Shown here: one piece after another, positions 35,068 to 54,983 of the stretch
How positions within the stretch are numbered: the stretch's first letter is position 1
How the letters are laid out: each line of letters begins with the position of its first letter
Source: an uncultured Actinomycetota bacterium
GTDB taxonomy: Bacteria; Actinomycetota; CALGFH01
Direction of reading: 5' to 3'
DNA length: 64,000 bases
NCBI GenBank assembly: GCA_963733175.1
Contig: CAVTCL010000023.1
Coordinates: forward strand, 1,130 to 65,129
The notes under the pieces: generated by a model
Told to the model about the DNA's origin: nothing
Database searches by the model: none
The model's input: the letters and a program-made list of their open reading frames with translations, nothing else
Program-made: the position numbers and the translations under genes

Positions 35068-37037
35068 TGGACCACCACGGGGACCACGCGGCGCAGTTCC
35101 GGGACCGGTTCTGGCTGAGCCTGGCCCTGACCGTCCCGGTGGTCGCCTACTCCGAGATGGTGCAGGAGTGGCTGGGGTTCACCCCGCCGCAGTTCCCGGG
35201 GTCGCGGTGGGTGGCGCCGGTGCTGGGCACGGTGGTGTTCCTGTACGGCGGCTGGCCGTTCCTCCAGGGCGGCCTGTCCGAGGCGCGGTCGAGGCAGCCG
35301 GGCATGATGCTGCTGATCTCGCTGGCCATCCTGGTCGGGTTCGGGGCCAGCGCCGCCTCCGCCCTTGGCCTGTTCGACCTGGAGTTCTGGTGGGAGCTGT
35401 CCCTGCTCATCGTGATCATGCTGCTCGGCCACTGGCTGGAGATGCGCGCCCTCGGCCAGGCCTCCGGGGCCCTTGACGCGCTGGCCGCCCTCCTGCCCGA
35501 CCAGGCCGAGCGGGTCGTCGGCGACCGGGTCGAGACGGTGGCCGTCGGCGACCTGGCCGTTGGCGACCTGGTGCTGGTCCGCCCGGGCGGCCGGGTGCCG
35601 GCCGACGGCGTGATCACCGAGGGGTCCGCCGAGCTGGACGAGTCGATGCTCACCGGCGAGTCCCGCCCGGTGGCCAGGGAGCCCGGCGACCGGGTGGTGG
35701 CGGGCACCGTGGCCACCGACTCGGCGGTCCGGGTCCAGGTGGAGGCGGTGGGGGAGGAGACCACGCTGGCCGGGATCCGCCGGCTGGTCGAGCAGGCCCA
35801 GGCGTCCGGGTCGCGGGCCCAGGCCCTGGCCGACCGGGCGGCCGCGCTGCTGTTCTGGTTCGCCCTGGGGGCCGGGCTCGTCACCCTGGTCGTCTGGCTG
35901 GCCCTCGGCGAGCCCGACCAGGCGGTGGAGCGGACCGTGACGGTGCTGGTGATCGCCTGCCCCCACGCCCTGGGGCTGGCCATCCCCCTGGTCATCGCCA
36001 TCTCGACCGCGCTCGCGGCCCGCAACGGCATCCTGGTCAAGGACCGGCTGGCCCTGGAGCGGATGCGCACCGTCGACGCGGTCCTGTTCGACAAGACCGG
36101 CACCCTCACCCTCGGCCGCCCCCAGGTCACCGGGGTGGCGACGACCGAGGCCGACCCCGACGCGCTGCTGCGCCTGGCGGGCGCCGTCGAGTCGGTCAGC
36201 GAGCACCCGCTGGCCCGCGCGATCGTGGCCGCCGCCCAGTCCCGGGGTGACCTGCCACGGGCGTCCGGGTTCCGCGCCATGACCGGCCGGGGCGTCCATG
36301 CCGAGGTCGACGGCGCCACCGTGGCCGTCGGCGGCCCGGCCCTGCTGCGCCAGCTGGAGCTGGCGGAGCCCGAGGCCCTGTCCGGCGAGCTCGACGGCTG
36401 GCGGGCCCGGGGCGCGACCGTGCTGTACGTGGTCCGCGACGACAAGGTGGTCGGGGCCCTGTCGCTGGAGGACGCGGTCCGCCCCGAGTCGCGCCAGGCC
36501 GTCGACGAGCTGCACCGCCTGGGCAGGCGGGTGGTGATGCTCACCGGCGACGCCCGCCAGGTGGCCGAGGCCGTCGCCGCCGCCCTCGGGGTCGACGAGG
36601 TGCTGGCCGAGGTCCTTCCCGAGGACAAGGACAGCGCCGTGGCCGGCCTCCAGCGCCGCGGCCTGGTGGTGGCCATGGTCGGCGACGGCGTCAACGACGC
36701 CCCCGCCCTGGCCCGGGCCGACGTCGGCATCGCCATCGGCGCCGGCACCGACCTGGCCATCGAGTCGGCCGGGATCGTGCTGGCCGCCAACGACCCCCGC
36801 GGCGTCCTCGGGGTGATCCGGCTGTCACAGGCCGCCTACCGCAAGATGCTGCAGAACCTCGGCTGGGCGACCGGCTACAACCTGGTCGCCGTGCCCGTCG
36901 CCGGCGGCGCCCTGGCCTGGGCCGGCGTCACCTTGGCCCCGGCCGTCGGCGCCATCCTGATGAGCGTTTCCACCATCGTCGTCGCCCTCAACGCCCAGCT
37001 CCTGCGCCGCGTCGACCTCCGGCCCGGCCAGGCCTGA
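35067..37037 (+). CDS. heavy-metal-translocating P1B-type ATPase, CPH (CopB-like) subtype, no HMA domain
   Basis: TGES, ACPHALGL, DKTGTLT, GDGVNDAP. Short His-rich N-terminus MDHHGDH. No CxxC metal-binding domain. Confidence 0.9.
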   Translation: MDHHGDHAAQFRDRFWLSLALTVPVVAYSEMVQEWLGFTPPQFPGSRWVAPVLGTVVFLYGGWPFLQGGLSEARSRQPGMMLLISLAILVGFGASAASALGLFDLEFWWELSLLIVIMLLGHWLEMRALGQASGALDALAALLPDQAERVVGDRVETVAVGDLAVGDLVLVRPGGRVPADGVITEGSAELDESMLTGESRPVAREPGDRVVAGTVATDSAVRVQVEAVGEETTLAGIRRLVEQAQASGSRAQALADRAAALLFWFALGAGLVTLVVWLALGEPDQAVERTVTVLVIACPHALGLAIPLVIAISTALAARNGILVKDRLALERMRTVDAVLFDKTGTLTLGRPQVTGVATTEADPDALLRLAGAVESVSEHPLARAIVAAAQSRGDLPRASGFRAMTGRGVHAEVDGATVAVGGPALLRQLELAEPEALSGELDGWRARGATVLYVVRDDKVVGALSLEDAVRPESRQAVDELHRLGRRVVMLTGDARQVAEAVAAALGVDEVLAEVLPEDKDSAVAGLQRRGLVVAMVGDGVNDAPALARADVGIAIGAGTDLAIESAGIVLAANDPRGVLGVIRLSQAAYRKMLQNLGWATGYNLVAVPVAGGALAWAGVTLAPAVGAILMSVSTIVVALNAQLLRRVDLRPGQA

Positions 37038-39655: not shown

Positions 39656-40812
39656 ATGGACGCCGCGTCCTGGTGGCAACGGCTGCGGCGCGTCCCCGCG
39701 CCGGTGGTCGACGCCATCCTGGCCGTGGGCCTGGCGGTGGCGGTGACGGTGGCCATCGCCGTGGCTCCGGAGCAGGGCCGGCCGGCGCCGGCGGCCGCCT
39801 ACGCGCTGGGACCCGCCATCGGGGCCCTGGCCCTGTTCCGGCGGCGCTGGCCGCTCGGGGTGCTGCTGGCCTCGGCGGCCGTGCTGGCCTTCTACAACCT
39901 GTTCGACAACCCGGGCCTGTTCTCGGCGGTGCCGCTGTCGGTGGCCCTGGCCACCGCCTGGGCCGCCGGCCGCCGCGTCTGGGCGCTGCTGGTCGCGGCC
40001 TACTTCGGCGGCGGCCCGCTCGTCTTCGTGGCCGTCTCCGACCTCCCCGCCGACTTCGCCGCCCAGGTGGTCTACGGCGCCGTCTCGGACCTCGCCCTGC
40101 TGGCCGCGGTGCTGCTGCTGGGCGAGGCGGTGCGCGGCCGCCGCGCCCTCGACCAGGAGCACCGCCTGCTGCTGGCTGAGCAGGACCGCTCTGAGCGGCT
40201 GCTGCTGAATGTCCTGCCGTCCCCGATCGCGGCCCGGCTCAAGCAGGGCGAGGCGGTGATCGCCGACGGGTTCTCGGAGGTCACCGTGCTCTTCGCCGAC
40301 CTGGTGGACTTCACCCGGCGCAGCCAGCAGACCACCCCGGAGCAGGTGGTGCAGGTCCTGGACGGCCTGTTCTCGGCCCTCGACCGGCTGGCCGAGCGCC
40401 ACGGCCTGGAGAAGATCAAGACCATCGGGGATGCCTACATGGCCGTCGGGGGGCTGCCCGAGCCCCGGCCCGACCACGCCGAGGCGGTGGCCGAGATGGC
40501 CCTGGCCGTGCGCGAGGAGGTCCCCCGCCACCGCGACCCGGCCGGCCAGCCCCTGGCCGTGCGCATCGGCATCGACACCGGCCCGGTGGTGGCCGGGGTG
40601 ATCGGCACCACCAAGTTCAGCTACGACCTGTGGGGCGACACCGTCAACACGGCCAGCCGCATGGAGTCGCGCGGGGTGGTCGGCTGCATCCAGGTGACCG
40701 AGCGGACCTACCGGCGGCTGCGGGACGGCTACCGTTCGAGCGCCGGGGGCCGGTCCAGGTCAAGGGCAAGGGCGAGCTGGTCACCTGGTTCCTCCTCGGG
40801 AGGATCGAATGA
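39656..40812 (+). pseudogene. membrane-anchored class III adenylate cyclase, frame broken at ~40731
   Basis: About 6 TM helices, then VLFADLVDFT, KTIGDAYMAVGG, LWGDTVNTASRMES. The last 27 aa (FERRGPVQVKGKGELVTWFLLGRIE) lie in ORF 40630..40812 after loss of a T in CGTT(T)CGAG. Confidence 0.8.
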
Positions 40813-40825
40813 CGGCCGACGAGCG

Positions 40826-41080
40826 CTACCGCCCGGCACGCCCTGCGGGGCCCGGGGCGAGCAGGCGCATGGCGTCGTCGGCCGCCTCCTCGAGGGTCCT
40901 GGCCGCCCCGGCCGCCTGGGCGCGGTCGTAGGCGGCGTCGCCCAGGCGCCGGTGGACCGCGGCCAGGGCGGTGGCGATCCGGGCCGCCTCGGCGCCGTAG
41001 GACCGGCTCGGCGCCACCTCCCGGACGCTGGCGGCGAGGGCGGCGGCGGGCTCGTCGCGGCCGGTCCTGGCGAGCAGGAC
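40826..41080 (-). pseudogene. possible 3' remnant of a TPR/STAND-type regulator gene
   Basis: Only the C-terminal ~75 aa of ORF 40826..41149 look protein-like (LARTGRDEPAAALAASVREVAP...AAGAARTLEEAADDAMRLL). No credible N-terminus. Confidence 0.3.
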
Positions 41081-43586: not shown

Positions 43587-44445
43587 ATGCCGCAACGGTC
43601 GCTGACCGTCGGGACCGTCCAGGTCACCGCCGTGTGCGACGTCACCGGCGACTTCCCCGTCCCCCTCGACCAGGCCTTCCCCGGGGTCGAGGCGGCGGCG
43701 TGGGCGCCCTGGCGGCGCCGCCACCCGGACGCCTTCAGCGGCCACGACCGCTGGCGGCTGCGCGACTGGTGCTTCGTGGTCCGGGCCCGGGAGCGGGTGG
43801 TGCTGGTCGACACCGGGGTCGGGGGCGAGGGGGTGCCCGGCGCCACCTGGATCGGGACGCCGGGACGGCTCCCCGAGGAGCTGGCCGCCGCCGGGGTCGA
43901 GCCGGACGAGATCGACCTGGTCGTCCTCACCCACCTGCACCTCGACCACATCGGCTGGAACCTGGCCTGGGACGGCGACCGGCCCCGGCCGCGGTTCCCG
44001 AGGGCCCGCTACCTGGTCCAGCGGGCCGACTGGGAGCTGTTCGCCGCCAGGGGCGACGAGGGACCGGGCGGCGTTCGACCGCTGCGTGGCCCCGCTCCAG
44101 TCCCTCGGGGTGGCCGAGCTGCTGGACGGCGACCGGGTCCTCGACGACCAGCTCAGCCTGGTCCACACCCCCGGGCACACCCCGGGCTCGCAGAGCCTGC
44201 TGGTCCGCTCCGGCGACGACGCGGCCCTGCTCTGGGGCGACGTCGCCAACCACCCGGCCCAGGTCGGCGAGCCCGACTGGGGGCCGGGCAGCGACGTCCA
44301 GCCCGAGGTGGCCCGAGGCACCAGGCGGCACCTGCTCGACCGCATCGAGAGCGAGAGCATGTGGCTCGCCCCGGCCCACTTCCCCGAGCCGTTCGGCACC
44401 GTGACCCGGGACGCGGACGGCCGCCGCTGGCAGGGCCGCCGGTGA
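43587..44445 (+). pseudogene. MBL-fold metallo-hydrolase, frame broken at ~44059
   Basis: VVLVDTGVG and THLHLDHIGWN lie in ORF 43587... After GDE the sequence continues in ORF 44086..44445 (DRAAFDRCVAPLQSLG..., HTPGHTPGS). Confidence 0.75.
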
Positions 44446-44462
44446 CGGCAGGGCCGGCCGCC
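44167..44462 (+). repeat. 296-bp direct repeat, copy 1 (3' end of the MBL hydrolase gene plus 17 nt downstream)
   Basis: Aligns colinearly with 45898-46193 at a constant offset of 1731 nt with about 10 mismatches. Confidence 0.9.
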
Positions 44463-44533
44463 TCCCAGGCCGGAGCCCCGGTCGTCGTGGGCGCGGGTGA
44501 GCGGCGCAAATCGGCTGTCATGGAGTCGCCGGG

Positions 44534-45410
44534 TCAGGCGGCGGCACCGTGTTTTCGATGTGGTGGGGTGGCAGTCGAGCCGGCCATCTGGCTGGCGGGT
44601 GAGCTGCCAGCCGCCCTCGTGGACCGCGCGATGGTGGGCCCGGCAGAGCAGGGCCAGGTTGTCGAGGTCGGTGGGGCCGCCGTGGAGCCAATGTCGGAGG
44701 TGGTGGGCTTCGCACCAGGCCGGGGGTCGGTCGCAGCCGGCCACCACACAGCCGCCGTCGCGGACGATCAGGGCGGTGCGTTGGGCGGGGGTGACGACCC
44801 GGCTGGTCCGGCCGACCTCCAGCGGTTGGGTGGGGGCGCCGCCCAGGGTCGGGGGGAGCCGGGTCGCCGCCGTCTGGAGCCAGCCCGCCAGGCCTGGCAT
44901 CGCCGCTGGGGTAGTGGGCCGCTGGGTGGTCGTCGCCGTCCGGGTCCTGGTGGGTGGGGTGGCGGGTGACCAGGACCCGGGTGACGGCGGCGTCGCAGGC
45001 CAGCCGCCGGCAGGTCTCGGGGTCCAGCGGCCAGGGCCCGCCGGTCTCCCCGCCCAGCCCATCGGGGTGGCTGAGGAGGCTGTCCAGGTCCACGGTGACC
45101 AGCAGCTGGGGGCGGACCCCACCGCTCTGGGGGAGTTGGCCGCTCTCCAGGGTGCGGCGGGCCAGCTCGGTCAGGGCATCGGCGCGTACGCTGGCCACCG
45201 CTGCGCGCATCCTGGGCGTCGGTGGGGCGGGCCAACGGCTCCAAGGCGGCGAGCAGGGTCTGGCCGGCCTCGGGGTCCAACAACCCCTGGAGGGCGACCA
45301 TGCCCTCCCAGGTGGGCGACAGCCACAGGCCCCGCCGCTGATGCTGCCGTTCGGCCTGGGCCTGGGCACCGTCGGGGTCGGCGACCAGCGCCTGAACCCC
45401 GCTTGTGTCC
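44534..45410 (-). pseudogene. DUF222/HNH endonuclease (13E12-repeat type) remnant, 5'-truncated and multiply frameshifted
   Basis: Segments over three frames: ERQHQRRGLWLSPTWEGMVALQGLLDPEAG; RADALTELARRTLESGQLPQSGGVRPQLLVTVDL...RRLACDAAVTRVLV; VVTPAQRTALIVRDGGCVVAGCDRPPAWCEAHHLRHWLHGGPTDLDNLALLCRAHHRAVHEGGW. The first ~200 aa are absent. Confidence 0.7.
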
Positions 45411-45897
45411 CGGCCGGTGTTCTGGCCGGCTGGCTGGTCGAATGGGTGTTCGAGTCCATGGTAGCAACCTATCAGCCCCGCACTCCAAGGCAAGCACCAA
45501 GCCGAAAATGTGGATAACCCAGCCGTCACCGACTTCACCAGACCCAGCATCGAGGGATCGACCGCGGCGGTGGACAGCCGCAGGCACCTCACCTTGTCGG
45601 CGACGATCCCCGATCAAGGCCCAGCGCTCGGACCCAGGTCGTCGCAGCGTACCCACCGGGTCGAGGGCAACCCCGTGCCAGGCAACTGCATGGGGCCCCG
45701 ACACCCGTGACCACCCTGCCAGCTCCCCGCACGGGACCCCGACGACCCCAGGCACCCGACCCACCCTGCCACCCAACCACACGGGACCCGACGGCCCCGG
45801 GAAGGCCCACCCGACCCCGACCCGACGCCTGCATCCAATTCCCCTCAACCGGGGTACCTGACCGGCTCCCTAGCCCGGCCCCGTCTTGAGGGCGGCG

Positions 45898-46193
45898 ACC
45901 CCCGGGCACACCCCGGGCTCGCAGAGCCTGCTGGTCCGCTCCGGCGACGACGCGGCCCTGCTCTGGGGCGACGTCGCCAACCACCCGGCCCAGGTCGGCG
46001 AGCCCGACTGGGGGCCGGCCAGCGACGTCCAGCCCGAGGTGGCCCGCGGCACCAGGAGGCACCTGCTCGACCGGATCGAGAGCGAGGGCATGTGGCTCGC
46101 CCCGGCCCACTTCCCCGAGCCGTTCGGCACCGTGACCCGGGACGGGGACGTCCGCCGCTGGCAGGGCCGCCGATGACGGCAGCGCCGGCCGCC
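45898..46193 (+). repeat. 296-bp direct repeat, copy 2 (orphan 3' fragment of the MBL hydrolase gene), preceded by a 27-nt copy of the downstream gene's 3' end (45870-45896)
   Basis: ORF 45886..46176 reads ...HTPGSQSLLVRSGDDAALLWGDVANHPAQVGEPDWGP..., nearly identical to ORF 44086..44445. CTAGCCCGGCCCCGTCTTGAGGGCGGC at 45870 copies 46196-46222. Confidence 0.9.
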
Positions 46194-46195
46194 GG

Positions 46196-49103
46196 CTAGC
46201 CCGGCCCCGCCTTGAGGGCGGCCGTGCCGATGTGGAAGCCGAGGGCGCGGTAGGCGTCGAACTGCTCGTGGTCGAAGAACTGGTCGCCGGTGCTCTGGCG
46301 GGGGAAGGCGGCCTCCTTCAGGGCGTAGGTGAGCAGCTCGTACGGCATGTCCGGGGTGAGCACGGCCTTGGCCACGACCAGGGTGCCGTGGCGGGACGGC
46401 TCCTCGTCGGGGGTGACCGCGAACGGCTCCGGGTACTCGATGTCCCCGCGGACCACCGCCTGGCGGGACAGGCGGGCGTTGAGCCGCTCCAGGACCTCGG
46501 AGGGCTCCAGCGGGGGGGCGCTGCCCGGCACCAGGCCGGTCGGGTCGCGCAGGGTGATCCGCACCCCCAGCTCCTCGTAGGCCAGGGTGATCGCCTCGGC
46601 CAGGGTGGTGGCGAACGGCGGCGCGTCGCCGCTGGCGTCCAGGCAGTAGACGGTCCGGCACCGGTGGCGCAGCAGCTCGACCAGGCCGAGGTTCTCCCAG
46701 TGGCCGCCGTCGGTGCAGAGCAGCATGCGGCCCTCGGCGGGGTAGGCGCCGATGATCTCGCGGAGCTGGTAGGGGAGCCGGCGGGCCCCGGGCAGGCGGG
46801 GCGTCCGCCAGCTCGCGTCGGGCCGGCCGAGCGCGGCCAGGAAGGCCGGGTTGGGCAGCCAGGTCCCGAGCCGCACGTTGGACAGGGCCAGCAGCCGCTG
46901 CACGGCGGCGGCGTGGCGGCCCATGGCCGAGGCGATCGCCGCCCCGGACACGGCCATGGCCGCCTGCACGGTCACGTCCCGCCGCAGGGCGGGCTTGCAG
47001 GTCTCCTCCAGGGTGCTGGTCCGGACCCAGCCGACGTCGGGCCCGCCGACGTAGTCCCCCGACATCGTGAACGCCGCCGCCCGGCGTCCCGGCGGGGTCC
47101 GCGACTGGCCCGACAGGGCGGCGGCGGCCACGAAGATGACCTGCGGGAACCCGTCGGCCCGCTGGCCGTAGGCGCTGAGGGTGGTCGGCTCCTCGATCGC
47201 GTAGGCCAGGGCGCCGGTCCCGCCGTCGGGCATGTGGGCCCGGCGGACGGCGAACGCCGAGGCCAGCCGGCGCCGGTAGAACGGGTGCAGCCCCAGCCAG
47301 GTCTGGTCGATCAGGAAGCCCGCCCCGACCAGCACGGCCAGCAGGACCAGGCCCAGCCAGGCCGGCCAGCGGTGGGCGGCAGCGGTCGTCCAGGCGCCCA
47401 CGAACACGAACACGAAGGCCAGCACCGCGTGCACCGCCCAGACGATCAGGCGCTGCCCGAGCCCGGTGGCGACCTGCCGCTCGACCACCTCGCCCTGGTC
47501 CCGGCGGCCCAGCAGGCCGCCCAGCCCCAGCTTGGCCCCGCTGGCCCGCAGCTTCTCGGTCCGGCGCCACGTCGTGCCGGCCAGGGCGCCGAACCAGGTG
47601 ACCAGGGTGGTGACGACGGCGGTGAAGGAGGCGGCCGGCACCGGGTTCTCGACCCCGGTCGCCCAGGTGAGCCGGGTCATCGCCCAGACGACCGCCGGCA
47701 CGGCGATGGCGTAGACGGCGACCACCGCGGTCACGCCGACGGTGGCCCGGAACAGGTTGCGGGCCACCCGGGCCAGGCCGAGCCGGTCGTTGCTGGCCAG
47801 CAGCCCCACCATCACCACCACCCAGGCGACGGCGGCGATGGCGGCCCCGACGCCCAGCGCCCACCAGACCGCTTCGGGGGGCGCCGGGTACGCGGCCGGC
47901 TCCGGCCCGCTGGCCGGGTCGAACCGGGGCAGGAGCCGGGTGACGTCGACCACCGGCGCCGCCCGGTAGAAGGCGTTGAGGCCGACCCCGATCACCACCA
48001 CCCCGAGGGTCAGCAGCCCGAGCGACGCGGCCACCCCGCGCAGCACCACCCCGAGCGCCGTCAGCCACTCGCGGCCGCCGTCGGCCAGGTACTTGCCGTG
48101 GCGGCGCAGGTGGTCCTCCTCGGCCGACCCGGGCGCGAACACGTCCCCCGGCGCGGCCAGCGACTCGGCCTTCGGGTTGGCCCGGGTCAGGGCGAGCTGG
48201 AAGGCGCCGGTCATGTACCCGCCGCCGGACACCGACACCAGGTAGCGGGCCCGCGACAGGACGTCGCGCTGGAGCGCCTGGAGCGCCCCCAGGGTGACCG
48301 AGGCCGAGCGGATCCCGCCGCCCGAGGCGCAGATGCCGACCTCCGCGGGCGGCCGCCCCGGCGGGACCCGGCCGGCGTTGCGCCAGCGGGCCTGGGCCTC
48401 GCCGGGCAGGTCGGTGTGGGGGTGGTCGTCCTCGGCGGCCACCTCGGCCGCCCGGTCCCGGCCCGCCTCGGTGTAGAGCTCCTGCTGGACGTCGGGGCCG
48501 GACTGGCCGATCGCTGGCCGACAGGGTGGCCGTCGAGGCGTCGGCCACCGCCGGCGGCAGGATGATGTCGGGACGCCGGTCGGTCCCGGGGTCGAGCTCG
48601 CTCGCCCGGGCGATCTCGGGCGCGGCGGCGTTCCCGTGGCCCCGCACCCGCGACCGCCTGGACAGCCGGCGGCCGAGCAGGACGCTGGCGACCACCACGA
48701 AGACCGGCAGCAGCGGGCCGGCGACGGCGAACTTCAGCACCGCCAGGGGGGTCGCCACCTCGGACGCCGGCTGCCCGCCGGCGCCGGTCGACCCGCCGAG
48801 CGGGGCCAGGTTCTCGGCGACGTCGGCCGCCGCGACCAGCAGCACGCCGCCGGCGCACCAGCGGGCGACCCGCCGGGCCCCCGACCCGTACAGGAACAGG
48901 GCGCCGAGGCCGAACACCCCCACCCCGGCCAGCACGTAGCCGGCGATCAGGAGCCAGTCCGACCGGAGGGCCTCCTGGTCGACGCCCTGCCCGCCGTCGA
49001 GCTCCCGCCAGCCCAGGTACAGCAGGGGAGCGCCGACGACGACGGCCACGATGGCCAGGGCCGTCAGCGCGGCCCGGGCATCACGGGCGGCACGAACCCC
49101 CAC
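46196..49103 (-). pseudogene. polytopic membrane patatin/cPLA2-like phospholipase, frame broken at ~48515
   Basis: GICASGGGIRSA, SVSGGGY nucleophile elbow and CTDGGHWENLG Asp motif lie in ORF 46196..48442, with ~7 TM helices between the Ser and Asp motifs. A 4-TM N-terminal region (from GTG 49103) is in another frame (part of ORF 45870..49517). Confidence 0.75.
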
Positions 49104-49208
49104 GATCTCCCTGCACCCCCTCAGACCCCCACGGGCCGGGCGAGGCTCGCAGGTTCCTCCCGACCCGTCAACCGCCACCCAGGGTGGCCGTTGGATTAGC
49201 ATTGGCCC

Positions 49209-49594: not shown

Positions 49595-50117
49595 GTGTCC
49601 TTCAAGGTCGCCAAGGTCCTCGACGTCGCCCAGGGGGTGCAGAAGGACCAGTTCACGGTCGTGTCGCGGGAGGAGAAGGAGTCGCTCGACGACCTCGACC
49701 CGGTGTACCGCCGGCTGCTCGACGAGCCGGTGACCGCCGTGATCGCGGTCATGGGCGACGACGGGCGTCCCTGGCTGACGCCGGTCTGGTTCAACTACGC
49801 CGGGGACAGGGTGCTGCTCAACCTGGCCGAGCACCGCCGCAAGACCGACTGCATCCGGCGCAACCCGCAGGTGACCATGCTGCTGATGAACCCGGAGAAC
49901 CCCTACCACTGGGTCAGCCTCAAGGCGACCGCCGAACGCGAGGTCCAGCGAGGACGACCCGGCCGAGGGGCGCCGGGCCACCGAGACCATCGACCAGTCG
50001 TGGACCAAGTACACCGGCGCCGAGCCGCCCTACGGCCTCCGCGACCCGGCCATGGACGAGCGGCGGGTGCTGTTCGAGTGCCGCGTCGACAGCGTGGCCG
50101 TGTTCGGCCAGCCGTAG
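49595..50117 (+). pseudogene. pyridoxamine 5'-phosphate oxidase (PPOX) family protein, frame broken at ~49945
   Basis: GTG 49595. VTAVIAVMGDDGRPWLTPVWFNYAGDRVLLN...HRRKTDCIRRNPQVTMLL, then after EREV the frame shifts (SEDDPAEGRRATETIDQSWTKYTG...RVLFECRVDSVAVFGQP*). Confidence 0.7.
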
Positions 50118-50138: not shown

Positions 50139-51323
50139 GTGCCCGACTGGCCGCGGGTCGCGGTGGTCGGGGGCTCGCTGGGCGGGCTCACGGCCGCGCT
50201 GGTCCTGCGCGACCTCGGCTGCGAGGTCGACGTGTTCGAGCGGTCGACGGCGGAGCTGGAGAGCCGCGGCGCCGGCATCGTGGTGCTGGAGGCCACCGTC
50301 CGCTACCTGCGCGAGCGGACCGACCTGGACCTGGGCCAGCTCACCACCGCCACCGGCCACCTGCGCTACCTGGGCCGTGACGGCGGCATCGTGTACCAGG
50401 AGCCGCGGCGCTACCGGTACTCGGCCTGGCACACCATCTACCGGGCGCTGCTCGGCCGCTTCGGCCGCCGCCGCTACCACCTGGGCAGAGAGCTGGTCGG
50501 TTTCGAGCAGCGGGCCGGGCAGGTCGCCCTGCGCTTCGCCGACGGCTCGGAGGGCGCCTGCGAGCTGCTGGTGTCGGCCGACGGCATCGCCTCCCGGGCC
50601 CGGGCCGCGCTCCAGCCCCAGGCCCGGCCGGCCTACGCCGGGTACGTGGCCTGGCGGGGCACGGTCGGCGAGGGCCGGCTCGGCCCGGCCGTGCGCGACC
50701 TGCTGGCCGACTCGATCTGCTACCAGCTCGTGCCGGCCAGCCACATCCTCTGCTACCCGATCCCGGCGCCGGACGGGTCGGTGGCCCCCGGCCGGCGCCT
50801 GGCCAACTTCGTCTGGTACCGGAACTACACCCCCGAGGAGCTGGAGGACCTGATGACCGACCGGGACGGGGCCCGCCGCGAGGTCACCCTGCCGCCGGGC
50901 GCGGCCCGCGACGCCCACCTGCGCGAGCTGCGGGCCGTGGCCGCCGGCCAGCTCGCCCCCCAGCTGGCCGAGGTCGTGGAGCGCACCGAGCGCCCCTTCG
51001 TCCAGGTGATCTCCGACATCGAGGTCGAGCGGATGGCGTTCGGGCGGGTCTGCCTGCTCGGCGACGCCGCCTTCGCCCTGCGCCCCCATGCCGCCGCGGG
51101 CACGGCCAAGGCGGCCGCCGACGCCTGGGCGCTCGCCGAGGCGCTGGCGGCCAGCGGCGGCGACCTGGCGGCGGCGCTGCCGCGCTGGGAGCGCCGGCAG
51201 CTCGCCGTCGGGCGGGCGGTGCTCCAGCGCACCCGCCGCAACGGCGACCGCTCGCAGTTCGAGGGGACCTGGCGCCCCGGCGACCCCGAGCTCGTCTTCG
51301 GCCTCCACGGGCCCGGCCGCTGA
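50139..51323 (+). CDS. FAD-dependent aromatic-ring monooxygenase
   Basis: VAVVGGSLGGLTAAL dinucleotide fold, SADGIASRAR, LLGDAAFALRPHAAAG. Confidence 0.85.
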   Translation: MPDWPRVAVVGGSLGGLTAALVLRDLGCEVDVFERSTAELESRGAGIVVLEATVRYLRERTDLDLGQLTTATGHLRYLGRDGGIVYQEPRRYRYSAWHTIYRALLGRFGRRRYHLGRELVGFEQRAGQVALRFADGSEGACELLVSADGIASRARAALQPQARPAYAGYVAWRGTVGEGRLGPAVRDLLADSICYQLVPASHILCYPIPAPDGSVAPGRRLANFVWYRNYTPEELEDLMTDRDGARREVTLPPGAARDAHLRELRAVAAGQLAPQLAEVVERTERPFVQVISDIEVERMAFGRVCLLGDAAFALRPHAAAGTAKAAADAWALAEALAASGGDLAAALPRWERRQLAVGRAVLQRTRRNGDRSQFEGTWRPGDPELVFGLHGPGR

Positions 51324-51354: not shown

Positions 51355-52334
51355 ATGGTGACGGGCGTGGGACAGCAGCCTGCCTCGCCCCCCGCCCCGA
51401 CGGCGGTCGTCGCCGAGTCGGAGTTCCCGCCGCTGTACCTGGCGGCCGACCAGAACTCGCTCGACGGCCAGCGCCGCTTCCTCAACGCCACCCGCCTGCG
51501 GCTGGCCATGCTGGTCCTGGCGGCGGCGTTCGGGCTGTTCACCTGGCGCACGGCCGGCGGCGACCTGGCCGGGATCGGGGCCGCGGCCGCCTTCGTCGTC
51601 GCCCTGCTGGCCGAGCTCTACCTGCTCCAGGCGCGGCCCGACCGGCTCTGGTACGACGGGCGGGCGGTGGCCGAGTCGGCCAAGACCCTGACCTGGCGCT
51701 ACCTGGTCGGCGGCAGCCCGTTCGGCCGGGAGGAGGTCAACGAGCGGGAGGCCGACAAGCTGCTGCTGGACCGGTTCCGCCAGATCACCGGCAGCCTCGG
51801 CGGGGCGCACCTGGTCCCGATCACCGGCGCCGCCGAGCAGATCAGCCCGGCGCTGCGGCGCACCTGGTCCCGATCACCGGCGCCGCCGAGCAGATCAGCC
51901 CGGCGATGCGGCGCTACCGCTCGCTGCCGCTGGAGGAGCGGCGCGAGCTCTACCGCAACGGGCGGATCGGCGGCCAGCAGGCCTGGTACGCGCGCACCGC
52001 CCGCTGGAACGAGCGCCGGGCGACCCAGTGGTCGCTGGTCCTCACCACCCTGGAGGCGCTGGGGCTGGCCGGGGGTGTCCTCAAGGCGACCGGCGTGCTC
52101 CGGGTCGACCTGCTCGGGCTGGCCAGCGCGGTGGTCGCCGCCGGCGCCGCCTGGGTCCAGGCCAAGCAGCACCAGACCCTGGCCACCGCCTACGCCGTCA
52201 CCAGCCAGGAGCTGTCGGTGATCAGCGGCCAGGTCGACTGGGCGTCCACCGAGCAGGAGTGGGCGCACTTCGTCGACCAGGCCGAGGAGGCCATCTCGCG
52301 GGAGCACACCCTCTGGCGGGCGTCCCGCAGCTGA
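51355..52334 (+). pseudogene. tandem SLATT/DUF4231-like 4-TM protein, disrupted by a 53-bp tandem duplication
   Basis: N half (2 TM, then WYDGRAVAESAKTLTWRYLVGGSPF) lies in the frame of ORF 51088... C half (RELYRNGRIGGQQAWY..., 2 TM, ...AYAVTSQELSVI...FVDQAEEAISREHTLW) lies in ORF 51906..52334. Removing one 53-bp repeat unit joins them into a ~308-aa ORF. Family call is by recall. Confidence 0.6.
51804..51909 (+). repeat. 53-bp tandem duplication (2 units, 1 mismatch)
   Basis: GGCGCACCTGGTCCCGATCACCGGCGCCGCCGAGCAGATCAGCCCGGCG(C/A)TGC occurs at 51804-51856 and 51857-51909. Confidence 0.95.
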
Positions 52335-52407: not shown

Positions 52408-53523
52408 CTACCCGGCGTCGTCGCGGAGCAGGGCCACGATCCGGCGCTGCATCTGCGCCCGGAGCCGCTCCTCCACGACCTGGCCGTCCTGGTCGCGCGG
52501 CACCTTCTCGATGCGCTGGTCGGCGAAGTCGAACGGCGCCGGCGGCGAGCTCTCCTCCCGCACCGGGATCCACCCCGACGGCGGCGCGTCGGGCGCGTTG
52601 ATCAGCGCGTGCAGCATGCCGGCCTCGAAGATCACGTTCGGGTTGTCGACATAGCCGTGCTCGGCCCCTGACGGGGCCGGCTCGGAGAAGTAGCAGATGC
52701 CGTAGCGGGAGCGGACGATCCGGTCGGCGATCTGGCTGGTGATCGCGCCCGAGTCGGCGATCTCGTGCCAGTCGAAGACGCTCACCTTGCTGTCGAACTC
52801 GGCCAGCACCCCCTTGAGGATGCCGAGCACGTGGCTGTCGGCGTTGTCGGCCGAGGCCAGGAACAGGTTCGGCTTGGTCAGGCGGGGGAACTTGGCCTGC
52901 CCCAGGAACCGCCCGAGCTGGCCCACCGCCTTCTCGGTCCCCTCCGTCTGGGCCTTGTTGGCGTCGCGCAGCTCGATCAGGATGGCGAGCGCCTCGGCCA
53001 GCGTCGTCAGCTCGTGCTTGGCCACCGGCGTCGCCTCGACGTGGGTGGTCGACTCGAGGTACATCACGCCCAGCGGCCGCCCGAGGCGGACCAGCGGCAG
53101 CATGATCGAGGTCTTCATCGGCTCCTCGGCCGGCGACACGTACCGGGGCAGCCCGGTGACGTCCGACCACAGGTCCAGGTACCCGGCCGGGTCGTCGACG
53201 TCGCGCAGCGCCCCGCCGTCGGCGGCCACGACCCACAGCGGCCGCCGCTGGTCGAAGGCGATCGACACCTGCCGGGTGTAGCCGTCCCCGCTCCTGATGG
53301 TGGTCCCGGACCCCTGGTCGGCGCTGCTCCAGGTCGTCTGCAGCCCGGGCTGCCCGTCGATCCTCGACCTCGTCATCAGCCCGAAGTAGGCGGCCTCGAG
53401 CTCGTTGCGCATGTACTCCACGACATGGTCCCGGACCCGGTTGAAGGTCGCCTGATCCACGATGTCGACCGAAAGGGCGAACTGCCGCAGCAGCTCGGCG
53501 AAGGTCTTGACCAGCTCGCTCAT
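52408..53523 (-). CDS. GAF domain + TIR-like (COG4271 / PF10137-type) domain protein
   Basis: Intact 371-aa ORF, ATG after GGGGAGG. The N-terminal ~190 aa are GAF-like (RRPLWVVAADGG...SIMLPLVRLGRPLGVMYLES). The C-terminal half has LFLASADNADS..., YGICYFSEP and NPNVIFEAGMLHAL, as in TIR-like nucleotide-binding effectors. Confidence 0.6.
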   Translation of the reverse strand: MSELVKTFAELLRQFALSVDIVDQATFNRVRDHVVEYMRNELEAAYFGLMTRSRIDGQPGLQTTWSSADQGSGTTIRSGDGYTRQVSIAFDQRRPLWVVAADGGALRDVDDPAGYLDLWSDVTGLPRYVSPAEEPMKTSIMLPLVRLGRPLGVMYLESTTHVEATPVAKHELTTLAEALAILIELRDANKAQTEGTEKAVGQLGRFLGQAKFPRLTKPNLFLASADNADSHVLGILKGVLAEFDSKVSVFDWHEIADSGAITSQIADRIVRSRYGICYFSEPAPSGAEHGYVDNPNVIFEAGMLHALINAPDAPPSGWIPVREESSPPAPFDFADQRIEKVPRDQDGQVVEERLRAQMQRRIVALLRDDAG

Positions 53524-54842: not shown

Positions 54843-54983
54843 GACCGGGACAGTCTGGTAGTACCGACCGCACCCGGCAACTACGCAGATCTCACTAGTT
54901 CGGCATGACCCGGCGTCGGGACGTGGCCCCGGACGCACCTGCTCCCAGCACGGGACGGCTGGGAGCAGGTGGCCGATGACTGG

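Follow-up and report, generated by a model that had tools for sequence, protein, structure and literature searches.

The presence of a 53-nt segment twice, head to tail, inside a gene for a SLATT-domain membrane effector raises the question of whether this gene has really been broken, and, if so, whether the break is an ordinary lesion, the OFF position of a switch or the separation of one gene into two. The gene lies in the window (the whole 64,000-nucleotide stretch of DNA that was analysed), and the host is described as a soil actinobacterium. As will be argued below, the answer to which we assign a probability of about 0.6 is the plainest one, namely, that a recent microhomology-mediated tandem duplication (MTD), private to this assembly, appears to knock out a TIR-associated SLATT effector. 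The claim that the 53-nt duplication is real, which covers this loss-of-function reading together with the minor rivals that also assume it, can be held somewhat more firmly than that. The gene and its products are the following:

51355-52334, plus strand: interrupted SLATT_3 + SLATT_1 effector gene, 980 nt long, or 927 nt (308 aa) without the extra unit
51355-52221, plus strand: ORF as assembled, in which 167 native residues, comprising the SLATT_3 module and its two hydrophobic helices, precede 121 aa read out of frame
51906-52334, plus strand: downstream ORF of 142 aa, with the last 12 SLATT_3 residues and the whole SLATT_1 module

The start of the gene is the ATG at 51355, with an AAGG motif 6 nt 5' of it. 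From there, the assembled ORF is in frame through residue 167 and reaches a stop at 52219-52221, for a total of 288 aa. As 53 equals 3 x 17 + 2, the native frame is lost past residue 167, and the resulting tail of 121 aa is rich in Ser, Pro, and Arg. Removal of either 53-nt copy leaves a single ORF of 308 aa that ends at 52334 and includes the stretch LGGAHLVPITGAAEQISPA(L/M)RRYRSLPLEERRELY, which bears out the statement of the first-pass annotation that the repeat frameshifts the gene and that deletion of one unit restores it. The restored protein matches Pfam SLATT_3 (PF18184) over residues 25-179 (E 1.5e-46, 158.9 bits) and SLATT_1 (PF18181) over residues 182-303 (E 2.8e-35, 121.4 bits), in both cases against a cut-off of 26.3 bits, and also scores above the cut-offs of the corresponding NCBIfam models, NF033610 and NF033634. 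In the assembled sequence, these two domains fall in different frames.

A hydropathy scan of the restored protein reveals hydrophobic segments at residues 45-63 and 66-94, within SLATT_3, and at 227-251, within SLATT_1. The AlphaFold2 model of P0002, a protein 97% identical to it, has a pLDDT of 86 and a pTM of 0.79, and shows long helices at 26-61, 71-93, 175-227, and 235-274, with a coil at residues 147-164 that joins two helical modules. According to this model, the duplicated residues 150-167 are the predicted linker between the SLATT_3 and SLATT_1 modules. No solved structure in the PDB was retrieved below E 0.1 when the SLATT model was searched with Foldseek. In terms of these segments, the first hydrophobic hairpin (45-63 and 66-94) is still present in the truncated product, from which the second module is missing.

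The elements of the repeat are these:

51804-51856, plus strand: unit copy 1, with C at 51853, giving the codon CTG (Leu167), the state of the haplotype group of L013 and L015
51857-51909, plus strand: unit copy 2, with A at 51906, giving ATG (Met), the state found in L014, L004, and L016
51910-51914, plus strand: right microhomology arm GGCGC, repeating the 5 nt with which each unit opens (51804-51808 and 51857-51861)

The sole mismatch between the copies is that of 51853 (C) and 51906 (A). Identity at period 53 continues for 5 nt beyond copy 2 on the right (the GGCGC arm, up to 51914) and does not extend at all on the left. Tandem Repeats Finder describes the array as 2.1 copies with 98% matches, no indels and a score of 215, versus 75 for the runner-up array in the window, and the longest exact self-match anywhere in the window at lags of 10-199 is a run of 49 nt at lag 53. 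The repeat is far beyond chance, and is by far the strongest tandem repeat of the window, whose G+C content is 74.5%. The coordinates, the unit length and the single mismatch first reported proved exact when Tandem Repeats Finder, the self-match and a direct sequence comparison were applied, and the pair was also recovered by find_repeats.

The state from which the two-unit form arose can be approached through the DNA of five close relatives: JGI contigs L013 and L014, farmland scaffold L015, and ENA contigs L004 and L016, the last two with numerous small indels. These relatives are ~97-98% identical to the window in this gene, and the nearest protein homologues, of 308 aa, show 97% identity. 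All five carry one unit only, as does a relative at 83% identity (L001), and none of 140 homologue cluster representatives has an insertion of more than two residues between residues 140 and 190, most of the SLATT homologues checked being full-length SLATT_3 + SLATT_1 fusions. The single-unit form is thus the ancestral one.

The frameshifted product, used in its 288 aa as a query against a protein database of 5.8 billion clusters, found no full-length match. Part of the out-of-frame tail is shared with P0107, which is encoded on L004 and is the only other relative with a frameshift; there it results from a different event, a 1-nt deletion in a G run, and that contig abounds in further small indels. 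Among metagenome contigs, the 24-mer that spans the junction, CCGGCGMTGCGGCGCACCTGGTCC, occurs at eight loci, which look like chance matches because none of them has homology past the short match (seven extend over 24-26 nt alone, and the other, L011, over 36 nt at 92%). A 142-aa SLATT_1 gene on L016 was considered as a second two-unit allele and discarded, since it is actually a single-unit locus; the 5' half of the SLATT gene of this contig contains many small indels (105 alignment gaps relative to the window), and the gene caller began at the ATG of the Met allele.

Relative to L013 and L014, the SLATT gene of the window shows neither an indel that would compensate for the frameshift nor any other small indel. 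Rescue by programmed frameshifting was also considered and rejected, no slippery motif being apparent by eye. Regarding the substitutions private to the window, five of the six, and three of the four located downstream of the break, affect the third position of a codon in the restored frame, and a frame plot indicates that the native downstream frame keeps a strong coding signal, so that the downstream half still looks constrained in its native frame. Given that all relatives and homologues have a single unit, and that the frameshifted product is unmatched, the duplication is derived, recent and private to this assembly. Two claims of the first-pass annotation are thereby strengthened: the ancestry of the single unit, by the five relatives and the 140 representatives, and the recency of the duplication, by its absence at ~97-98% identity and by the third-position bias of the private substitutions. 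It had also named a case that would speak against its reading, an orthologue with two units and a compensating frame, and no orthologue has this form.

How such a duplication may have originated is suggested by its ends. Junction microhomology of at least 5 nt at lag 53 is present at 1.0% of positions in this sequence. MTDs, a class of mutation that was defined in fission yeast and has been surveyed in bacteria as well, have arms of at least 4 nt and segments of ~10-500 bp; about half of the variable tandem duplications of bacteria have arms longer than 3 bp, where 1.6% would be expected, proneness is highest for long GC-rich arms, and such duplications revert more than 10 times faster than they arise (bioRxiv 10.64898/2026.02.28.708716). 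No unusual single-strand DNA fold was detected in the 53-nt unit (z = 0.36).

The following sequence of events is proposed. The ancestral gene would have held one GGCGC where the unit begins and another 53 nt downstream, within the stretch that codes for the non-helical linker, and template slippage or misannealing between these arms during replication would have duplicated the 53 nt. The frameshifted product would then consist of the first membrane hairpin and a 121-aa nonsense tail, devoid of the SLATT_1 module, and the TIR-associated, ThsH-like membrane effector would most likely be non-functional, with its GAF + TIR-like neighbour intact. Reverse slippage with loss of one unit would restore the gene exactly, as a general property of such duplications and with no need for a dedicated switch; in this restricted sense, as a matter of principle, the reversibility by slippage proposed at first still stands. 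It is possible that the knock-out was selected, for instance, if the effector is toxic, or that it is neutral; nothing observed at the locus favours selection against a toxic pore. Most likely, this is an ordinary loss-of-function lesion in one assembly, in which both the type of event and the type of gene are known and only the instance is new.

The single mismatch between the copies deserves separate consideration, as it bears on every alternative. Of the 140 homologues, 83 have Leu and 52 have Met as residue 167, whose codon is CTG in L013 and L015 and ATG in L014, L004, and L016. Twelve sites distinguish L013 from L014, L004, and L016; at 11 of these, on both sides of the duplication, the window agrees with L013, and the only exception is 51906 in copy 2. 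The arm base at 51914 (C) is also polymorphic among the relatives, and a G there would leave an arm of 4 nt. These two positions, 8 nt apart, occur in three of the four possible allele combinations across the five relatives, pointing to homoplasy at this spot. A later mutation at random would have only about a 1-2% chance of hitting a site of this kind with the right base. The A of copy 2 most likely comes from recurrent mutation at this codon, gene conversion from a relative with the Met allele, or a consensus of mixed strains. Because this codon is dimorphic for Leu and Met across the family, with both alleles in close relatives, the mismatch cannot date the duplication. The lesson may be of wider use: in recombining or mixed populations, "one mismatch between copies" is unreadable as a measure of age.

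The last of these sources of the A leads to the most serious alternative, according to which the repeat is an artefact of assembly or consensus, originated in a metagenome assembly that is prone to errors, probably made from long reads, and drawn from co-occurring strains. The segment would have been duplicated at a junction of reads or segments, or during polishing, with the Leu and Met alleles contributed by two strains. A mixed-strain assembly would indeed give copies that differ only at a polymorphic site, with each of its two alleles represented among relatives at ~97-98% identity, and the two-unit allele is unique to this assembly. Moreover, several genes of the window that are intact in relatives have small frame-breaking indels. 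A gene for a protein with a metallo-beta-lactamase fold is split into three frames compared with L004, by an extra C in a C run at about 43865-43871 and by a loss of 2 nt at 44062 (the latter also with respect to L016), and a gene similar to those for pyridoxamine-phosphate oxidases has an extra C at 49949, outside any homopolymer. The nearest long relatives are themselves contigs with names in the style of Flye/Medaka and many indels. From these comparisons, the consensus of the window is evidently error-prone for small indels, and it is on account of those in neighbouring genes that an artefact in a strain mixture retains some credit.

Against this explanation, a clean duplication of 53 nt is unlike the type of error observed in the rest of the window, whose frame-breaking indels measure 1-2 nt, and polishing by majority of reads usually strips spurious insertions of 53 nt. 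The microhomology of 5 nt at the junction is expected for real events and arises by chance in ~1% of cases, the haplotype does not switch in the flanks of the junction, and the gene is otherwise free of indels against the two JGI contigs. A simple two-strain chimera at the junction was tried as a specific form of the artefact and rejected, the window being L013-like at 11 of 12 diagnostic sites over both flanks. All in all, an artefact is considered unlikely, yet it is the one rival with appreciable weight. The first-pass annotation had held that a base-calling artefact was improbable; this is right as to the type of error, which is not that of base calling; for assembly or consensus, the reservation just made applies. 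It had also contrasted the repeat with most other frame breaks of the window, and these are indeed present, not all of them being homopolymer indels, as illustrated by the extra C at 49949.

A second alternative is that a phase-variation switch has evolved here, in which one unit would be ON and two units OFF, trading protection from phages against the cost of a toxic pore. This proposal draws on general precedents, since tandem duplications revert faster than they form (bioRxiv 10.64898/2026.02.28.708716), SLATT effectors have been described as cell-killing (bioRxiv 10.64898/2025.12.03.692087), and reversible duplications inside ORFs are an established mechanism of phase variation (Waite et al. 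2001, 2003, as cited in PMC4243769 and PMC11163986). At this locus, none of the five close relatives and none of the 140 homologues have the two-unit form, and no other database sequence contains the junction in this gene or the full frameshifted product. In addition, the GGCGC pair is unremarkable among the 822 pairs of at least 5 nt with a spacing of 10-500 nt that exist in the restored gene, 365 of which are frame-shifting, and the DNA fold is ordinary (z = 0.36). With the allele found nowhere else, an arm pair that is one of 822 equivalents and no architecture that would raise the rate, the on/off switch suggested at first finds little room, and we regard it as very improbable.

The remaining alternative is a split into two working parts, with the ATG of copy 2 as the start of a separate SLATT_1 module beside a truncated SLATT_3. 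Downstream of the stop at 51321, the ATG at 51906 is the sole in-frame start before a GTG at 52095; the latter already lies within the hydrophobic portion of SLATT_1, so that only the former gives a complete module. Its A is the derived state, where C is expected on an L013-like background, and SLATT_3 and SLATT_1 are separate Pfam domains. Nevertheless, a start would also result from 13 of the 318 possible substitutions, which makes the coincidence a weak one, and it is confounded with the Leu/Met polymorphism. Since there is no Shine-Dalgarno sequence upstream and the upstream ORF has no nearby stop, independent or coupled translation of the 142-aa ORF is unlikely. The insertion is absent at this site in all 140 homologues checked, most of them full-length fusions. 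This is the least probable reading of all. A scan for promoters and terminators between 51200 and 52500 found none. Taken jointly, the ideas that the two-unit allele is a maintained reversible OFF state (a form of bet-hedging), or that the Met copy leads to two separately translated modules, are given a slim chance.

If the gene is a recent casualty of an MTD, as preferred here, it should be annotated as one disrupted SLATT_3 + SLATT_1 gene and not as two genes, and censuses of TIR-SLATT (Thoeris-like) systems would miscount this locus. Should reads hold both one-unit and two-unit molecules, this would be a natural reversible duplication that gates a cell-killing immune effector.

A more useful by-product of the analysis than the lesion itself is the TIR-partner context of this SLATT family. 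The candidate partner in the window is the gene that faces the SLATT gene:

52408-53523, minus strand: intact gene for a GAF + CAP12/Pycsar-type TIR-like protein of 371 aa, convergent to the SLATT gene

The N-terminal half of this protein is a GAF domain (Pfam GAF_2, E 1.7e-6), and its C-terminal part corresponds to PF10137, a match that is weak in this copy and is found in 29 of the 46 members of the family, at best with E 3e-8. Its AlphaFold2 model has a pLDDT of 85, and Foldseek confirms the GAF fold, recovering the GAF half only; a sequence search of the PDB with this protein gave only noise. PADLOC models matched neither the SLATT protein nor this neighbour. The same convergent pair is found on L022, with a SLATT gene 72% identical and different flanking genes, and its recurrence in that different genomic setting suggests a functional module. 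At 48-60% identity, homologues of the neighbour have no adjoining SLATT gene, and because these more distant homologues stand alone, the link is plausible rather than proven. On this conservation of gene order, the GAF + TIR-like protein is a likely partner of the SLATT gene.

Other members of the SLATT family are found next to TIR proteins of other types. In Agreia (L003; SLATT 47% identical), a ThsB_TIR gene of 142 aa (E 1.5e-18) overlaps the SLATT start, and the pair is flanked by an AAA_15 ATPase and a KAP NTPase. In the metagenome-assembled genome L023 (SLATT 74% identical), a ThsB_TIR gene lies directly upstream, whereas a TIR_2 protein follows the SLATT gene of Streptomyces L002 (59% identical), and P0080 is a ThsB_TIR-SLATT fusion. 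The partners of the family would therefore comprise ThsB-type TIR proteins or, in the lineage of the window, a GAF + TIR-like protein.

The comparison with known systems concerns both the event and the gene. As to the event, the duplication agrees with MTDs in that a segment present once in relatives is now present exactly twice, head to tail (2.1 copies and no indels in Tandem Repeats Finder), in that its 53 bp fall within the range of 10-500 bp, in that its GC-rich arms of 5 nt exceed the working threshold of 4 nt, and in that it is variable within a species-level population, located in a coding region and, in principle, exactly revertible. It departs from them in that only one consensus sequence shows the duplication and in that the difference between the copies falls on a site that was already polymorphic, something that a simple, one-step MTD would not lead one to expect. 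The best-known parallel for a reversible form is the pneumococcal capsule, where spontaneous duplications in cap3A, cap8E, and tts switch expression (Waite et al. 2001, 2003, as cited in PMC4243769 and PMC11163986). In these genes, a tandem duplication inside the ORF likewise turns off a costly function and its exact loss restores it. Unlike the SLATT locus, ON and OFF variants were obtained there from the same strains and reversion was seen, while here there is a single two-unit consensus and the one-unit state is known from relatives only.

As to the gene, the same Pfam SLATT domains occur in CBASS, in SMODS/SLOG conflict systems and with defence reverse transcriptases, such as an E. coli reverse transcriptase reported to be paired with a SLATT-domain protein (PMC9122126), but no cyclase, SMODS or reverse-transcriptase gene adjoins the SLATT gene here. 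Cell-killing membrane SLATT effectors have been described in the work on type VII Thoeris, in which a TIR protein, ThsB, is combined with the SLATT effector ThsH and the signal is canonical cADPR (bioRxiv 10.64898/2025.12.03.692087). The Agreia ThsB and the TIR domain of an experimentally validated ThsB of type VII are 34% identical (E 3e-16). The locus shares with type VII the presence of a gene for a SLATT-domain effector, members of whose family form two-gene operons with a ThsB-type TIR (L003 and L023) or are fused to it (P0080). It differs in that the lineage of the window has no ThsB-type TIR in the same operon, and has instead the convergent GAF + PF10137 type. In domain content, the SLATT family seems to resemble ThsH, and the locus would act like a TIR-SLATT system, yet with a TIR partner other than the ThsB of type VII; the GAF domain of that partner suggests that this may be a sensor-bearing variant of the TIR-SLATT theme.

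Two genes on the 5' side of the SLATT_3 + SLATT_1 gene show frame breaks of their own, which are relevant to the trust that can be placed in the assembly. The first encodes a metallo-beta-lactamase-fold protein (window 43700-44420) and is spread over three frames, in contrast to the intact gene of L004, one of two contigs from close relatives; compared with L004, its C run near 43871 is longer by one C, and compared with both L004 and the second of these contigs, L016, it has lost 2 nt at 44062. The second, a pyridoxamine-phosphate-oxidase-like gene (49595-50115), is thrown out of frame by one additional C at 49949, located outside any homopolymer, and its L004 copy is intact. The breaks in both genes are probably consensus errors.

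The guanylate-cyclase-domain gene (39656-40901) also aligns to its L004 counterpart in two frames, with the break falling between 40735 and 40815. Identity between the two in this region is only ~82% at the protein level, and the break could mean that the window is frameshifted here, that the L004 sequence contains an error, or that the two genes have diverged.

A stretch of ~4.7 kb (44460-49184) is missing in both L004 and L016, where the base corresponding to 44459 directly adjoins that corresponding to 49185. This looks like a strain-specific islet, possibly with a defence-related role, and it holds the following ORFs:

44518-45459, minus strand, 313-aa ORF with a partial DUF222 match
46196-48442, minus strand, 748-aa ORF that weakly matches patatin-like phospholipase

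A direct repeat of 300 nt with 96% identity is found at 44167-44466 and 45898-46197 (spacing 1731 nt). Each copy matches the 3' end of the metallo-beta-lactamase-fold gene, a gene present once in L004 and in L016, and the repeat represents either a scar from the insertion of the islet or another structural anomaly in the assembly.

The two tRNA-Arg genes that ARAGORN called at 35777-35873 and 48875-48969 are unusually long (95-97 nt) and probably false positives, because a search of the whole window against Rfam at the gathering threshold returned no RNA families.

Downstream of the SLATT gene, an intact neighbour is encoded:

52408-53523, minus strand, GAF + CAP12/Pycsar-type TIR-like protein of 371 aa

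Its motif NPNVxFEAGMLHA is invariant in the 46 homologues compared, and the family is large (186 matches at E <= 1e-5, 120 of them listed), most members being unnamed. The gene forms a convergent pair with the SLATT_3 + SLATT_1 gene in the lineage of the window and in L022, a locus with different flanking genes; in more distant relatives it stands alone, without the SLATT pairing. A perfect 14-bp inverted repeat (CACCTGCTCCCAGC ... GCTGGGAGCAGGTG) occupies an intergenic position at 54936-54978, and L016 lacks a 35-nt segment covering most of it. Its stem resembles that of a terminator, but the T tail is absent.

In other actinobacteria, two-gene operons consisting of ThsB_TIR and SLATT_3/SLATT_1 genes have been found in Agreia sp. 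PsM10 (L003, 3386-11115), flanked by an AAA_15 ATPase and a KAP NTPase, and in the MAG GCA_009772025.1 (L023, 4493-5924), with MazG_C and HMUDK_hel genes nearby. Both operons are similar to type VII Thoeris.
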